Shown piece by piece: positions 1 through 10,643 of a DNA stretch of 10,643 nt. Both the position numbers and the translations under genes were made by a program. Position 1 is the stretch's first letter. Each line of letters opens with the position of its first letter. The stretch comes from a virus (taxonomy: Duplodnaviria > Heunggongvirae > Uroviricota > Caudoviricetes): the IMG/VR virus record IMGVR_UViG_2548876868_000025; one strand, given 5' to 3'. The notes beneath the pieces were generated by a model that was given only the letters and a program-made list of their open reading frames with translations, did not search any database and was not told the origin of the DNA.

Positions 1-291
1 TTACCGCCGTAACCGCTCCGGCTTCTTCCAGTGGTACGTAATTTTTGCTTTTTCCCTGTACGTCTGCACGCGGCGACGGTAGGCCAGCATTTCAAGAACG
101 CGGATCCGTATGTTGCGCATATCCACATCATTAAGCTGGATACCATCACGGCGCATCACCTCAGCAACCACACGCGCGTAATTTTCGGCGGTCACGCTGT
201 CCGGCTGCGCGGTCTGTTCGTCAGCCTGCTGGCTGATTCCGGCGACGCGGCGGATTAATCCCAGTAGTTCGGCTTCTGTCATTGTGCCCAC
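1..291 (-). CDS. hypothetical protein (93-96 aa)
   Basis: Complete ORF with stop at 1-3; start is GTG at 291 or ATG at 282 (MTEAELLGLIRR...). No family recognised. Lies just beyond cos1. Confidence 0.4.
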   Translation of the reverse strand: MGTMTEAELLGLIRRVAGISQQADEQTAQPDSVTAENYARVVAEVMRRDGIQLNDVDMRNIRIRVLEMLAYRRRVQTYREKAKITYHWKKPERLRR

Positions 292-317
292 ATCGCTCTG
301 ATAGTCTGGTGTCGTAG

Positions 318-537
318 GGTCCTTCCTGGAATTATGGCCCGTTACGGGGCGGCGACCTCGCGCGTTTTCGCTATTTATGAAAATTTTTAGGGAAAAAGCA
401 GATCCGTTCTTCTTCTCTGTAACAGAATGTTTAACAATGAAAATATTAAAAAAAGAAAGGATCTTACACGAGGCATTTTAGCCAGAAAATGCCATTATCA
501 GATCCTTTCTCATTTTTGTTCAATAATTGCGCGTCTG
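318..537 (+). other. cos1: lambda-type cohesive-end site (cosN 347-358, followed by a lambda-like cosB region)
   Basis: Plus strand reads cgttacg GGGCGGCGACCT cgcgcgttttcgctatttatgaaaattttt, nearly identical to the phage lambda left end as recalled. Downstream blocks ccgttcttcttc, aaaagaaagga, tcctttctc and tttttgt mirror lambda cosB R-site/IHF-region sequence. Confidence 0.75.
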
Positions 538-1080
538 TTACTCGCCTTTCTTCTGTAGCAACTTTTCCGGTACGTTTCCGGTTGTTTCTTTCAAGTAATC
601 AGCCAGTATCTGTGGGAGGTTGTCGGCAACTCTGGCACTGGCATTACAGGCTTTAACCACTTCCCTTTTAAGCCTATCCAGCATGGCGGGGGTAATCTGT
701 GGGAAGCTCCTTTGCATAGTAAGCGGGAGGCTGTCCATGATTGATGAAATCTGACTCGCCAGCTTTGAAAGCGCGTACAGGCAAAACTCAGTATCAATCA
801 CGTTACCGCGATCGCGCTCGTTTTTAAGTTCCTGCGCCTCCGCCTGTACTGTCAGTAATCTGATCCTGACTCGTAAGAGTTCATCATCATCAATCTCGCC
901 TTTGTCGTTTGTAAGCTGGCTAATTGCATTGTTAACCCTATTGTCTATCACGCTGGCAACATCATAAAACGCCTCACGGCCTTTACGTTCAACGGGTGTC
1001 ACTCCCCACTTGTCGAACGCTGTCGCACTTACACGGCAGCTTTTCGCCATGTTTTTTTTGTTCATCAGGTGCGATTTCAT
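538..1080 (-). CDS. terminase small subunit, lambda Nu1-like
   Basis: 180 aa. The C-terminal half aligns by eye to lambda Nu1 (RLLTVQAEAQELKNERDRGNVIDTEFCLYALSKLASQISSIMDSLPLTMQRSFP versus RLTRAQADAQELKNARDSAEVVETAFCTFVLSRIAGEIASILDGLPLSVQRRFP). N-terminal NKK...W motif is in a similar position; alternative start is ATG at 1065. A cos site lies about 135 bp upstream, as in lambda. Confidence 0.85.
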   Translation of the reverse strand: MKSHLMNKKNMAKSCRVSATAFDKWGVTPVERKGREAFYDVASVIDNRVNNAISQLTNDKGEIDDDELLRVRIRLLTVQAEAQELKNERDRGNVIDTEFCLYALSKLASQISSIMDSLPLTMQRSFPQITPAMLDRLKREVVKACNASARVADNLPQILADYLKETTGNVPEKLLQKKGE

Positions 1081-1120
1081 TAATACACCAACTTAATTAC
1101 TGCTTCAGGTTGGTGTATTG
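1081..1120 (-). promoter_or_regulatory. Inverted repeat (11-12 bp arms, 16-nt spacer) abutting the terS start codon
   Basis: taATACACCAAC (1081-1092) and GTTGGTGTATtg (1109-1120) are reverse complements. On the minus strand the 3' arm ends 2 nt before the terS ATG. Confidence 0.5.
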
Positions 1121-1180
1121 TTTGCATCTTTCCCTTTTCATTCATAAAGATAGAGCAAACAACAAAACCACCACCGCCAA

Positions 1181-1256
1181 CCCGAAAAGGCTCATAAATA
1201 GCGAAAATCCGCGAGGTCGCCGCCCCGTAACGGGTCCATATGCCGGAAAGGACCCG
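1181..1256 (-). other. cos2: lambda-type cohesive-end site (cosN 1214-1225 on the minus strand), upstream of and colinear with the Nu1-like gene
   Basis: Minus strand reads acgggtcctttccgg...cgttacg GGGCGGCGACCT cgcggattttcgctatttatga. The core 23 bp is identical to cos1 and the upstream flank resembles the lambda right end (ACGGGTCCTTTCCGG). Confidence 0.75.
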
Positions 1257-1257
1257 T

Positions 1258-1280
1258 AAAAAAAGCCGGATTTCTCCGGC
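1258..1280 (-). terminator. rho-independent terminator after the 137-aa gene
   Basis: Hairpin GCCGGAtttcTCCGGC (1265-1280) followed on the minus strand by a 7-U run (1258-1264), 5 nt after the stop at 1286-1288. Confidence 0.7.
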
Positions 1281-1285
1281 CTGTC

Positions 1286-1699
1286 TCAGATGGTTTTCAG
1301 TATGCGATCGATGTCGCGGTCATCGCCCGGCTTTCTGCCATCGTATGCCATGCCTGCTGATACGGCTTGCGGGCTGTGCATGTCCATAAAGTTTTCAAAG
1401 GCTGCGGTAAGCTCTGGTGCAACCTTCTGGCGTTCCTGCTCTATGGTCATGCTAAGGATGCTTTTAGCCGTACCAACATCGATACAAGGCACGTTTGCCA
1501 TTGCACGTAACAGCGGCTGATAGTCGCCAGATTCATCAAGCGCCATAATCGCATCAGAGCGCGGCTTGTCCTGCTCTTCCAGTTTGTTGAGTTGATATAC
1601 GGCCTCGTAGGTTGATAACCCTCTGTCAGCCATTGCCCGCGCTTCGGCTTTAAATTTACTCGCCAGCGGTAGCGTCATGATGCTTTCATTCGTTGCCAT
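1286..1699 (-). CDS. hypothetical protein (137 aa), last gene of the capsid operon
   Basis: ORF tightly packed after the gpD-like gene (12-bp gap) and followed by a terminator. Sits where lambda has FI, but no similarity to a known family could be confirmed. Confidence 0.55.
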   Translation of the reverse strand: MATNESIMTLPLASKFKAEARAMADRGLSTYEAVYQLNKLEEQDKPRSDAIMALDESGDYQPLLRAMANVPCIDVGTAKSILSMTIEQERQKVAPELTAAFENFMDMHSPQAVSAGMAYDGRKPGDDRDIDRILKTI

Positions 1700-1711
1700 C
1701 GTTCCCCCTGC

Positions 1712-2056
1712 TTATCGCGCCAGCGGCTGAACGGATACGCCAGAACCCGCAAAGGCGGCGCATTTTTTCGCATCGGTGTCGACGCTCTCAGGCCAGTTAA
1801 CGGCGGCGATATTAAATATCCCCGTCTTATAGCACTGTGCTGATTTCTGCGTCGACGTGTCAACGGGGTACGAGGTCAGATAAACAGCCTTGCCAGATTC
1901 CTGACCATCCCACGGCTTAAACTCGCCATTGTCCGCCAGCATCAGCGGGGTAAATTCCTGAATAACGCCAGCATCAGCGGCAAAATGTACCAGCGTCGTT
2001 GATACCTGCTGACTGCCTGCAAATAACTCAATGTATGGAGTGTTCATAGAATCCAC
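1712..2056 (-). CDS. head decoration protein, lambda gpD-like
   Basis: 114 aa. TPLMLADNGEFKPWDG...CYKTGIFNIAAVNWPESVDTDAKKCAAFAGSGVSV parallels lambda gpD TPLMLDTSSRKLVAWDG...[35 protein letters not shown]. Only 2 bp separate it from the capsid gene. Confidence 0.8.
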   Translation of the reverse strand: MDSMNTPYIELFAGSQQVSTTLVHFAADAGVIQEFTPLMLADNGEFKPWDGQESGKAVYLTSYPVDTSTQKSAQCYKTGIFNIAAVNWPESVDTDAKKCAAFAGSGVSVQPLAR

Positions 2057-3349: not shown

Positions 3350-3410
3350 TTATAACTGGATGTTTATCCAGTCCTGATTATAATCAGAATTGCATTTTAT
3401 GCAATGATAT
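3350..3410 (-). promoter_or_regulatory. Candidate sigma70 promoter of the capsid operon, overlapped by three palindromes
   Basis: On the minus strand: TTGCAT, a 16-bp spacer, then TATAAT. Palindromes TTGCATtttATGCAA (3391-3405), CTGATTATAATCAG (3374-3387, containing the -10) and CTGGATgtttATCCAG (3356-3371, near the expected transcription start). Confidence 0.5.
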
Positions 3411-3485
3411 TGAGTTATGTTGCAAATTATGAAATGATTATCCCGATCACGAACGCCAGTGCATCCAAAAACCTCATATGCAAAA

Positions 3486-3523
3486 GCCCGATAAGAACCC
3501 TCTGACCTTATCGGGCTTTTTTT
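3486..3523 (+). terminator. rho-independent terminator oriented on the plus strand, with no obvious plus-strand gene upstream
   Basis: Perfect 10-bp stem GCCCGATAAG / CTTATCGGGC (3486-3495 and 3507-3516) followed by 7 T (3517-3523). Confidence 0.6.
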
Positions 3524-3529
3524 GGGCGC

Positions 3530-3551
3530 AAAAAAGCCGGATTGCTCCGGC
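3530..3551 (-). terminator. rho-independent terminator after the 74-aa gene
   Basis: Hairpin GCCGGAttgcTCCGGC (3536-3551) followed on the minus strand by a 6-U run (3530-3535). Confidence 0.7.
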
Positions 3552-3571
3552 TATGTGTGCTGTGTGCTGGC

Positions 3572-3796
3572 TCAGTCTCTGATCTCTTTCAGAAATTCTA
3601 TCAATGCATCTATCTGTTCAGGATTTACCGCCAGCATTTCACCGGATAGAGCACATCTCACAAAACCATGCTGATCCTTTTCAATCAGTGCGCCCGTCTC
3701 CAGGAATGCGCGGTAATCATTGATGCTCATCGTCTCCATGTTGTCAGCATGGTATTTATCACGCTGTTTTAATATCTCATCAAATTTCATCGGCAT
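3572..3796 (-). CDS. hypothetical protein (74 aa), stand-alone transcription unit
   Basis: ATG at 3796 with a GAGGAA SD 9 nt upstream. Bracketed by terminators at 3893-3915 (upstream) and 3530-3551 (downstream). No family recognised. Confidence 0.55.
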   Translation of the reverse strand: MPMKFDEILKQRDKYHADNMETMSINDYRAFLETGALIEKDQHGFVRCALSGEMLAVNPEQIDALIEFLKEIRD

Positions 3797-3922: not shown

Positions 3923-4195
3923 TTAGCTGTCTTGGTAATTGCGCCATATTTCATCACCAGCACCATCTATACCCATTTCGGCATAAGTGCGATCGACTGC
4001 CTTTTTCAGGTCTCCGAAATTATCCGGCGGCTCCGGTGCCCTCTGTGCCTTCCTTGAACATTCCAGCCGTCGCATCGTGATGTGATGCCGTTCCTTGTCT
4101 GTCTCCACCAGCTGCATGACTTCACCCCATCGCGCCGCCGCCCTCCGGTAAAAGCCTTTCGCCTCCAGTTCCTCCGCTATGCGGTCATGTACCAT
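3923..4195 (-). CDS. hypothetical small protein (90 aa); weak resemblance to ANR-type small regulators
   Basis: ATG at 4195 preceded by GAGGGGG. The longer 130-aa reading frame would overlap ssb, so the short start is preferred. Motif IAEELEAKGFYRRAAARWGEV resembles an ANR-like helical pattern, unverified. Confidence 0.45.
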   Translation of the reverse strand: MVHDRIAEELEAKGFYRRAAARWGEVMQLVETDKERHHITMRRLECSRKAQRAPEPPDNFGDLKKAVDRTYAEMGIDGAGDEIWRNYQDS

Positions 4196-9401: not shown

Positions 9402-10643
9402 CTACACGGCCCGAATACCCCTTTTACCACTGGCAAGGGTTACGCCCGTTGCCGCCGCCTCGACAAATTCGCCCCACCAGCGCATAAGCACAATGCGTTT
9501 TTCTATGTAGTTGCTCCGGTTGTATGCCCGTCTCACTTCGTTGGTGTCCACGTGGGCTAGTGCGGCCTCGATTACGTCCGGCTCAAATCCTTCTTCGTTC
9601 GCTGCGGTGCTGAATATGGCGCGCATACCGTGAGAAACCAGAATCCCGCCAAACCCCATCCGCCGCAATGCTGCGTTTGCGGTCTGGCTGTTCATAGGCT
9701 GCCGTGGGTCTTTCAGGCTCGGGAAAACATAATCGCGGTGGTGGCTGATTGGTTTCATGGCCTCCAGTACCGCCATGGCCTGACTACAAAGCGGGATAAC
9801 GTGATCACGCCGCATCTTCATGCGTCCGGCGGGTATCGTCCATTGTTGCGCGTCCAGGTCGATTTCTTCCCAGCGTGCTGACGATGCTTCAACCGGACGG
9901 GTTACAGTCAGTAACTGCCATTCAATCAGTAATCTGGTCTGCCGTTCTGTTGCCGATACTGATAAAGCCTGCATAAGCTCCGGCAACTGTTCGGGGCGGA
10001 TTGTTGGCATATGTTTTTTTACAGGGGAGGGGAACGCCTTACGCACATTCATAGCCGGATTGGTATCAATCAGCCCACTGTTGGCGGCGTAATCCATTAC
10101 CTCATTAATTCGCTGCAAAACCCGCTTTAGTGTTTCCAGGTTGCCACGTTCCTTGATGGGGGTAAGCACCTCAACGAACCTGCGAGCGGTCAGGGTGTCT
10201 ATTGGCGTGTTGCCGATGAACGGGAATACATATTTTTCCAGCGAACGCCAGATGTCTTTAATCGTGTTGGGGGCCAGATTCTGGCTGATTTTCACCTGGT
10301 ACCATGCCGCCGCCACATTTTCGAACGTGTTCCCTTGTCTTCGGGCCTCTGTCTCTCTTTTTTGCCTCTCGTGGTCCTGCGGGTCAGTTCCGGCACTGAT
10401 TAACGTCCTGTACTCGCTACGGCGTTTTCTGGCATCAGCCAGGGAAACATCTTCAAGCGATCCAAAACTCAGCAATATTCTTTTTTTGTCCGATGGTCGG
10501 TAGTAGGAAAATCTCCAGAGTTTTGATCCAGACGGTTTGACCAAGAGAAAAAGCCCTCCGCCGTCCTGCAGGGTGTACTCCTTTTGCGCTGGTCTGGCTG
10601 CTTTGATCTGCACTGTGGTTAATGGGTGTGTTTTTCTCGCCAT
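9402..10643 (-). CDS. int: tyrosine site-specific integrase, P4 family
   Basis: 413 aa. N-terminal arm-type DNA-binding region (LTTVQIKAARPAQKEYTLQDGGGLFLLVKPSGSKLWRFSYY) and C-terminal catalytic region with HGMRAIFST (H-x-x-R) and a tyrosine in RRAYNRSNY. The start codon is the last three bases of the window. Confidence 0.95.
   Translation of the reverse strand: MARKTHPLTTVQIKAARPAQKEYTLQDGGGLFLLVKPSGSKLWRFSYYRPSDKKRILLSFGSLEDVSLADARKRRSEYRTLISAGTDPQDHERQKRETEARRQGNTFENVAAAWYQVKISQNLAPNTIKDIWRSLEKYVFPFIGNTPIDTLTARRFVEVLTPIKERGNLETLKRVLQRINEVMDYAANSGLIDTNPAMNVRKAFPSPVKKHMPTIRPEQLPELMQALSVSATERQTRLLIEWQLLTVTRPVEASSARWEEIDLDAQQWTIPAGRMKMRRDHVIPLCSQAMAVLEAMKPISHHRDYVFPSLKDPRQPMNSQTANAALRRMGFGGILVSHGMRAIFSTAANEEGFEPDVIEAALAHVDTNEVRRAYNRSNYIEKRIVLMRWWGEFVEAAATGVTLASGKRGIRAV

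Follow-up and report, generated by a model that had tools for sequence, protein, structure and literature searches.

The stretch of DNA analysed here, called the window, is the 10,643-nucleotide viral record IMGVR_UViG_2548876868_000025 of IMG/VR. It is a complete phage-inducible chromosomal island (PICI) of the EcCICFT073-like type, a satellite of the 11-kb class inserted at tRNA-Pro in Escherichia coli. The region of interest is its packaging-specificity module, which reads on the minus strand cosQ (1243-1255), cosN (1214-1225), a cosB of about 130 bp (1081-1213) and then a full-length small terminase gene, hereafter terS(sat) (538-1080). The window matched part of E. coli 7_33_46A at 100% identity, with a yejO pseudogene on one side and tRNA-Pro/yejM on the other; in that record, int and tRNA-Pro bound the element opposite the yejO pseudogene, and the flanks are chromosomal. 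The island encodes an integrase, an AlpA-type regulator, Icd-like genes, a DUF4222 protein, a RepA-family helicase, a single-stranded DNA-binding protein (SSB) and PerC, followed by a lambda E-like major capsid protein, a D-like decoration protein, a 137-residue protein, TerS and a 96-residue open reading frame (ORF). It corresponds gene for gene to EcCICFT073 and has the attributes of Gram-negative PICIs: int, alpA, a RepA-family helicase as pri/rep, a size of about 10-15 kb, mostly unidirectional genes, no tail or lysis genes and a specific att site. At least 80% of window positions 1-1800 was present in 491 of 5426 complete E. coli genomes.

No gene for a large terminase subunit (terL) was found. 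The largest ORFs of the window are 465, 413 and 351 residues long, and no large-terminase annotation exists in the 100%-identical record or its flanks; in particular, no terL follows or overlaps terS(sat), and this lack marks terS(sat) as a satellite gene. The initial annotation of this DNA had proposed a Nu1 homologue carried by a satellite without terL, and the identity of the protein bore this out. terS(sat) starts at an ATG and encodes a full-length, 180-residue member of the Nu1/N15 gp1 family. It matched Pfam Phage_Nu1 (PF07471) with E=1.4e-22 and 80.5 bits (cut-off 30), residues 33-148 aligning with positions 35-162 of the 164-position profile, and PHROG 57, 'terminase small subunit', along its full length (E=7.8e-53, residues 1-174 on profile positions 8-193 of 199). 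RefSeq annotates it as a terminase small subunit. The similarity to lambda Nu1 was readily detectable in alignment (37% identity), and the closest phage TerS was N15 gp1 (44.8% identity over 90% of TerS(sat)). The first methionine is invariant across homologues, and methionine 6 is a leucine in other genera; the alternative starts M6 and M11 were dismissed on these grounds.

Homologues with 75-98% identity are common in E. coli, and homologues with 55-58% identity were found in Enterobacter, Citrobacter, Kosakonia and Superficieibacter. Compared with the E. coli homologues, dN/dS was 0.12-0.27 for the whole gene and for each third of it, which indicates purifying selection and argues that the gene is maintained. 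A scan of genome contigs returned four loci with terS(sat) homologues. Two of these, from a Pseudomonas metagenome-assembled genome and from an Enterobacterales bacterium (L007 and L008), encode proteins of Pseudomonas type, 41% identical to TerS(sat) and akin to Pseudomonas phage TerS; they carry GGTTGGTTGTTGTGTTGTT directly before the start codon, and a lambda-type cosN was not found near either of them.

On the terS(sat) strand, the gene is preceded by an intrinsic-terminator-like hairpin with a T-run (1282-1263), which ends the operon of the capsid, decoration and 137-residue protein genes, then by cosQ (1255-1243), cosN and cosB up to the ATG at 1080, which is the layout of lambda. The cosQ-like sequence, GGGTCCTTTCCGG, was kept in all aligned loci, and the cohesive-end sequence of cosN, GGGCGGCGACCT, co-oriented with terS(sat), is identical to the left end of lambda. 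terS(sat) thus lies directly downstream of cosQ-cosN-cosB on the same strand, and the arrangement is repeated in 10 related loci. The region from cosQ to the ATG was aligned for 11 loci from five genera (Escherichia, Enterobacter, Citrobacter, Kosakonia and Superficieibacter), in all of which genera the order cosQ-cosN-cosB-terS is conserved. Similarity to phage cos sites is limited to cosQ-cosN and ends just after cosN. Beyond that point three cosB blocks are conserved in the 11 loci: TGGTGGTGGTKTTGTTGTT at 1158-1175, TATC..ATGAWT at 1140-1152, and CAATACACCMAC at 1109-1119 with its flanks.

The first of these blocks, which reads GGTGGTGGTTTTGTTGTT in the window (1158-1175, minus strand, bp 51-68 from the cohesive end), resembles an R3 element and was kept in 11 of 11 loci; within it, TTGTTGTT occurs only once in the window. 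According to the legend of Fig. 2 in PMC9026076, the cosB of N15 consists of just one R3, which linker scanning mapped to bp 48-60. The N15 R3 region reads GAGGTTGTTGTTT, and its core, GTTGTTGTT (N15 bp 51-59), is common to N15 and to the satellite block, at a comparable distance from cosN. Because a block conserved across genera shares this core with N15 R3, and because the DNA-binding domain (DBD) of TerS(sat) is itself of N15 type (see below), 1158-1175 is the likeliest primary TerS binding site. It lies outside positions 538-1120, within which the initial annotation had placed a possible TerS site. The second block, TATCTTTATGAAT (1140-1152, minus strand), emerged as conserved columns of the alignment and is a candidate bending or accessory site; no good match to the IHF consensus WATCAANNNNTTR was seen in the cosB spacer, as judged by eye only. 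Compared with the multipartite cosB of lambda, the conserved blocks occupy comparable positions; the similarity between the R3-like block and the stem arms described below is weak and partly window-specific. One further candidate, GGTTGGCGGTGG near cosN, considered as a direct repeat of the stem arm GGTTGGTGTATT, was dropped, as this stretch is window-specific and close relatives have GGGGGGTGGTGG.

The protein was then compared with phage TerS region by region. In the DBD (lambda residues 1-68), TerS(sat) is 25-29% identical to lambda-type TerS, whereas two phage TerS share 53%; the N-terminal DBD is the part that has diverged most from lambda, as initially annotated. It aligns with the DBDs of both Nu1 and N15 gp1, and it is of N15 gp1 type, the motif AFDKWGV.PVE..GRE.F.DV.SV.DNR being common to N15 gp1 and TerS(sat). 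AlphaFold2, run on an alignment of 12 sequences and used for secondary structure only, predicted strand-helix-helix-hairpin-helix for this domain (pLDDT 68-79). The central self-association region (lambda residues 100-140) is 41-66% identical to phage TerS and contains the invariant motif R.RL..AQA.AQELKN.R. The last 40 residues or so of lambda Nu1 bind gpA. In TerS(sat) this segment is alignable and keeps the pattern LK.e..KA.N......P..L..Y, with an identity of 29% to lambda and 48% to PhiR5_1. The 'conserved C-terminal half' of the initial annotation is thus correct for the centre of the protein and incorrect for its gpA-binding end: the family alignment confirmed a clear similarity to Nu1 and placed the conserved region in the middle.

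Two observations link the DBD to the cosB. First, TerS proteins of E. coli and Enterobacter satellites are 67% identical in the DBD and only 28% identical at the C-terminus; since these satellites keep both the DBD and the cosB blocks, the DBD tracks the conserved cosB while the tail diverges. Second, a natural chimera occupies the same slot in strain JNE151685 (L023 2807-3391, minus strand). Its TerS of 194 residues has N-terminal ~110 residues of PhiR5_1/lambda type and C-terminal ~85 residues of satellite type, including the VPEKLLQKKGE tail, and it adjoins a cosB of PhiR5_1 type (3400-3580) instead of the (GGT)n(GTT)n type. Because the chimera swaps both elements together and the E. coli and Enterobacter satellites keep both, DBD and cosB are co-inherited and are swapped as a modular unit. 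A cosB specificity different from that of lambda, which had been suggested at the outset, is well supported by the N15 gp1-like DBD, by the N15 R3-like core in the adjacent cosB and by this chimera.

These data also bear on whether terS(sat) and its cos are a decaying remnant with no present function, left over from a lambdoid or N15-like prophage fragment captured by the island. PICI late zones do capture helper late genes (bioRxiv 10.1101/2022.07.18.500453), and terS(sat) has no recognisable promoter or Shine-Dalgarno (SD) sequence. Against decay, intact 180-residue ORFs are present in hundreds of genomes and in several genera, low dN/dS extends over all three thirds of the gene, the cosB blocks are conserved across genera, and DBD and cosB are replaced as a unit. 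We consider such a remnant highly improbable.

The reading that we favour, with a probability of roughly two in three, is that TerS(sat), a small terminase with a DNA specificity proper to the satellite, brings the gpA-like TerL of a helper phage to the satellite cosN; this would be the cos-type version of the classic PICI strategy. During helper growth, the predicted winged helix-turn-helix of N15 gp1 type would bind the satellite cosB, with its main site in the (GGT)n(GTT)n block (1158-1175) and a possible second one in the conserved CAATACACCAAC block (1109-1119). The central and C-terminal half of TerS(sat) would assemble with a gpA-like TerL supplied by a lambdoid helper, whose nuclease and motor would nick the lambda-type cosN and package island concatemers in place of phage DNA, and interference with the helper would be expected. 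TerS(sat) would do the job of Rpp in the same slot of EcCICFT073; as a complete TerS it could recruit TerL itself and would not have to borrow the helper TerS.

Several results weigh against this reading. The low identity of the gpA-binding end to phage TerS (29-48%) is accompanied by a satellite-specific C-terminal tail of 12-13 residues, present in no phage of a 50,697-record collection, and for these two reasons productive binding of TerL does not seem assured. Relative to cosN, the N15-like core is about 8-10 bp more distant than its counterpart in N15, and its sequence in the window is TTTGTTGTT and not GTTGTTGTT. The AlphaFold2 model of the whole protein was poor (pLDDT 59.6), Foldseek of this model against the PDB gave nothing below E=0.3, and phmmer of TerS(sat) against the PDB gave chance matches only, reaching neither the Nu1 DBD (1J9I) nor RppC. 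Finally, between the terminator (1263-1282) and the ATG, a scan of the minus strand found no sigma-70-like promoter (no -35/-10 convincing by eye), and there is no canonical SD sequence upstream of terS(sat).

The divergent C-terminus is the main argument for a different mechanism, in which TerS(sat) would act as a decoy in the manner of Rpp: its central region would hetero-oligomerise with the helper TerS, poison the recognition of the phage cosB and retarget the complex to the satellite cosB, with the helper TerS supplying TerL. terS(sat) does occupy the rppA slot, between the same two inverted cos sites; its central region (lambda residues 69-140), with the invariant QELKN motif, is 41-66% identical to phage TerS; Rpp itself is a relative of the TerS DBD, RppA matching PHROG 57 over residues 7-47; and EcCICFT073 needs the helper TerS (Fillol-Salom et al. 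2019, PMC6739421). However, TerS(sat) has no sequence similarity to RppA (BLASTP E=1.0) and did not match the RppC chains of the PDB (6HLK/6HN7). Rpp dimerises with TerS by mimicry of the DBD and through its own C-terminal helices (PMC9026076), whereas the DBD is the most divergent part of TerS(sat). Furthermore, TerS(sat) keeps the full length of a TerS and the pattern of the gpA-binding segment, which Murialdo and Feiss (2022, PMC9026076) argue is lacking in Rpps. An Rpp-like decoy is judged unlikely, and direct recruitment of TerL by TerS(sat) remains the preferred explanation.

From the third cosB block to the start codon, the DNA contains a perfect inverted repeat. Positions 1082-1092 (AATACACCAAC) and 1109-1119 (GTTGGTGTATT) are complementary at 11 of 11 positions, with a 16-nt loop, and a single nucleotide separates the repeat from the ATG at 1080. 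The 10.6 kb contain only three local inverted repeats of 11 bp or more, this one included; we estimate the chance expectation at about 0.1. On the mRNA strand, the 5' arm (1109-1119) reads AATACACCAAC and lies within the cosB block CAATACACCMAC, at a distance from the cohesive end (bp 107-117) close to that of R2 in lambda; the 3' arm (1082-1092, bp 134-144) reads GTTGGTGTATT and overlaps the position of an SD-like GGTG, as seen from the repeat search and the fold. The stem described in the initial annotation is therefore real, with an extent of 11 bp, not 11-12, a distance of 1 nt, not 2, from the ATG, and a location within a cos site that had been overlooked.

The arms differ in their history. 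As part of the third cosB block, the 5' arm is conserved across genera; the 3' arm is not. A perfect 3' arm was found only in the class with at least 95% identity (four strains from different hosts). In the remaining E. coli lineages, 2-3 of its 11 positions are mismatched without compensatory change, and in other genera it is absent, an AGAGGTG SD sequence sitting there instead. No pair had changed on both sides, and 5 of 11 pairs departed by mismatch only. Our preferred description of the inverted repeat is that of a cosB element to which one lineage has added an inverted copy, in an arrangement like R2/R1 of lambda; it may act as a similar pair of DNA half-sites.

An RNA hairpin could also form here, and it has been proposed to gate translation, burying the ribosome-binding site (RBS) and the bases up to -1 so that TerS(sat) would remain low until a signal, or TerS itself, opened the hairpin. 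The fold supports the physical side of this proposal. RNA of the minus strand from 1040 to 1135 (96 nt) folded at -19.5 kcal/mol (z=-3.8; none of 200 shuffles folded as well), and the hairpin alone, at -14.5 kcal/mol, would bury the SD-like GGUG and all bases up to -1. The mean probability of being unpaired was 0.27 for this RBS, which is the most paired of the homologues tested (0.35-0.74). The perfect stem is kept in the four strains mentioned above, and there is no canonical SD sequence. If transcribed, the stem would lower translation initiation, and in this lineage it may affect translation. Comparison with relatives gives it no support: as conservation across genera is confined to the 5' arm, and the 3' arm belongs to one lineage and shows no covariation, gating is unsupported as a selected function. 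In the other E. coli lineages, with pairs broken, the fold is only about -7 kcal/mol, the other genera have a canonical SD sequence in place of the 3' arm, and the invariant arm is conserved with the cos site and not with its partner. Moreover, pairing is predicted to be nearly as extensive at the RBSs of lambda (0.36) and N15 (0.33), the transcript may not include the 5' arm, and a search of Rfam with window 1-1800 at E<=1 returned two chance matches to miRNA hairpins only, at the two inverted repeats. A selected translational gate seems unlikely, and the description as a cos element with an inverted copy is retained.

A second cos site, also absent from the initial annotation, lies downstream of terS(sat). 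Its cosN (347-358, plus strand) is inverted relative to the first and is equivalent to cos2 of EcCICFT073. The two cosQ-cosN regions form the arms of a 71-nt inverted repeat (317-387 and 1185-1255) that flanks terS(sat); the arms are 83% complementary and each holds GGGCGGCGACCT. In contrast to the site ahead of terS(sat), the second cos (347-520, plus strand) runs into a complete phage-type cosB, with R3 (AGATCCGTTCTTCTTC, 400-415, plus strand) and an inverted R2/R1 pair (AGAAAGGATCT ... AGATCCTTTCT, 454-510, plus strand), the latter identified by repeat search and comparison with lambda. The same R3, R2 and R1 elements are found upstream of nu1 in phage SerU-LTIIb. Related islands have other phage cosB types at their second cos, an ATGTCGG type in one locus (L018) and a ATGTCCGG type in EcCICFT073 cos2; papers of 2018 and 2019 had reported the phage cosB of EcCICFT073 as not identifiable (PMC6092414, PMC6739421).

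In other E. coli strains, the segment between the cosQ-cosN arms, with terS and both cosB regions, has the opposite orientation relative to both flanks. Window 317-1256 is inverted in this way in strains 2014C-4587 and JNE151685 (L024 2586-3525 and L023 2586-3116), with breakpoints inside the cos arms, the left arm (317-387) being a breakpoint zone of these natural inversions. A synthetic query of the inverted junction matched at full length in 6 of the 5426 complete genomes. It is possible, and we suggest it tentatively, that the arms make the segment an exchangeable and invertible packaging-specificity cassette, made of a satellite-specific cos read by its own TerS or Rpp and a helper-mimic cos with a complete phage-type cosB, whose swaps and flips would re-tune which helpers are exploited or blocked. 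The two cos sites would in that case give the satellite two alternative ways into the capsids of helpers. The cassettes exchanged by recombination at the cos arms would be Rpp, N15-type TerS and PhiR5_1-type chimeric TerS. The inversion itself may be either an occasional recombination accident or a working switch. The idea of lateral transduction from the outward-facing cos was set aside, as according to the relevant paper this mode of transfer is not used by cos phages.

Some further features of the island were recorded. A 13-bp direct repeat, CGTATAACTAAAA, lies on either side of the element (L001 11375-11387 and 22719-22731), about 625 bp to the left of window base 1 and 88 bp to the right of base 10643. 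It is a candidate att core and would give an island of about 11.35 kb, four copies of which amount to 45.4 kb and would suit a lambda-sized head by the packaging limits of lambda. The 137-residue protein (1286-1699, minus strand), encoded between the decoration gene and the cos, matched the C-terminal end of the head-maturation-protease family PHROG 53 (positions 495-566 of 583, E=1.9e-8). We take this match as a gpC/Nu3 scaffold-like part, in which case the island would encode a capsid protein, a decoration protein and possibly a scaffold-like protein. A PerC-family transcriptional activator (3923-4195, minus strand; Pfam E=1.2e-42), homologous to a virulence regulator, is present here as in EcCICFT073. 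Finally, a perfect 14-bp inverted repeat with an 11-nt loop (AAAAGCCCGATAAG / CTTATCGGGCTTTT, 3482-3520), in the gap between ORFs of 68 and 74 residues, resembles a bidirectional terminator.

A satellite with TerS and no TerL is already known and is textbook material. A small terminase that redirects packaging is listed as a core component of PICIs (PMC10085698), a terS homologue was noted in some Gram-negative PICIs in a 2018 survey (PMC6092414), and RefSeq annotates the gene; the finding of terS without terL is therefore not new. In the searchable literature, we found no description of a full-length Nu1/N15-type TerS in the rpp slot, of its N15-like cosB, of DBD/cosB cassette swaps or of the polymorphic inversion of the cassette. 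The full-length TerS cassette is probably a cos-type variant, as yet uncharacterised, of the satellite TerS that redirects a helper TerL. For lambda-like (cos) helpers, Rpp is the only worked-out hijacking mechanism, and it depends on the TerS of the helper; in about 9% of complete E. coli genomes (the 491 of 5426 mentioned above), a full-length TerS cassette occupies the rpp slot instead. If TerS(sat) indeed recruits the helper TerL directly, it would be a second and simpler solution, for which independence from the helper Nu1 is predicted, and therefore a different helper range and different phage escape mutants. In addition, N15-type DBD with (GGT)n(GTT)n cosB, PhiR5_1-type DBD with its own cosB, and Rpp with (ACC)n cosB make up a natural matched set for the rules of TerS-cosB recognition, which are unsettled even for lambda and N15.

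Compared with lambda, TerS(sat) belongs to the same Pfam family as Nu1 and the order cosQ-cosN-cosB-terS is the same. The inverted repeat lies near the positions of R2/R1, at bp 107-117 and 134-144 here and at about 109-124 and 150-165 in lambda. However, identity in the DBD is only 29%, its wing and linker are shorter than in Nu1, the R sequences of the two are unrelated and there is no terL. The likeness to N15 is closer: the DBD has the same short wing and a near-identical recognition region (AFDKWGV.PVE..GRE), the cosN is of lambda type, and the core GTTGTTGTT at N15 bp 51-59 corresponds to the satellite block at bp 51-68. In contrast, gene 1 of N15 overlaps terL (gene 2) and its product has a lambda-like C-terminus, whereas the satellite has no terL and a different, longer C-terminus; the satellite cosB is also about 55 bp longer, with two further conserved blocks.

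Among satellites, Staphylococcus aureus pathogenicity islands (SaPIs) likewise use a small terminase of their own, with its own DNA specificity, together with the large terminase of the helper. The SaPI TerS is a headful (pac) protein of an unrelated family, whereas TerS(sat) is a cos-type member of the Nu1 family with a defined cosN cut site. The Enterobacter and Citrobacter cos-terS homologues are found in helper-embedded satellites (HES), which are inserted in the major capsid gene E of lambdoid prophages (Tommasini, Mageeney and Williams, bioRxiv 2022); the HES example 11capE is stated in the same work to lack terS. The element of the window differs in being a chromosomal PICI at tRNA-Pro with a second, inverted cos. 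The HES loci examined (L009-L012 and L019-L020) have a single cos, and accessory genes follow terS in them (FRG, DUF3892 and Lambda_tail_I-domain proteins).

The nearest relative in organisation is RppA with cos1 of EcCICFT073. The element type is the same, and so is the slot, which follows the capsid, decoration and 137-residue protein genes and a terminator and lies between two inverted lambda-type cosN; in EcCICFT073 these are the published cos1 and cos2 (PMC6739421, PMC6092414). rppA and terS(sat) each follow a cos with phage-like cosQ-cosN and non-phage cosB, and the N-terminus of each protein appears to fall in the winged helix-turn-helix family of TerS. In EcCICFT073 cos1 (L003 37559-37625), the proposed RppA R3 region includes ACCACCACCAC, which is the window's (GGT)n block in reverse complement and lies at about the same distance from cosN. 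The products differ beyond their lack of sequence similarity. Rpps are 135-153 residues long (PMC9026076). They have no central and C-terminal TerS regions and must heterodimerise with the helper TerS, whereas the 180-residue TerS(sat) has both regions.

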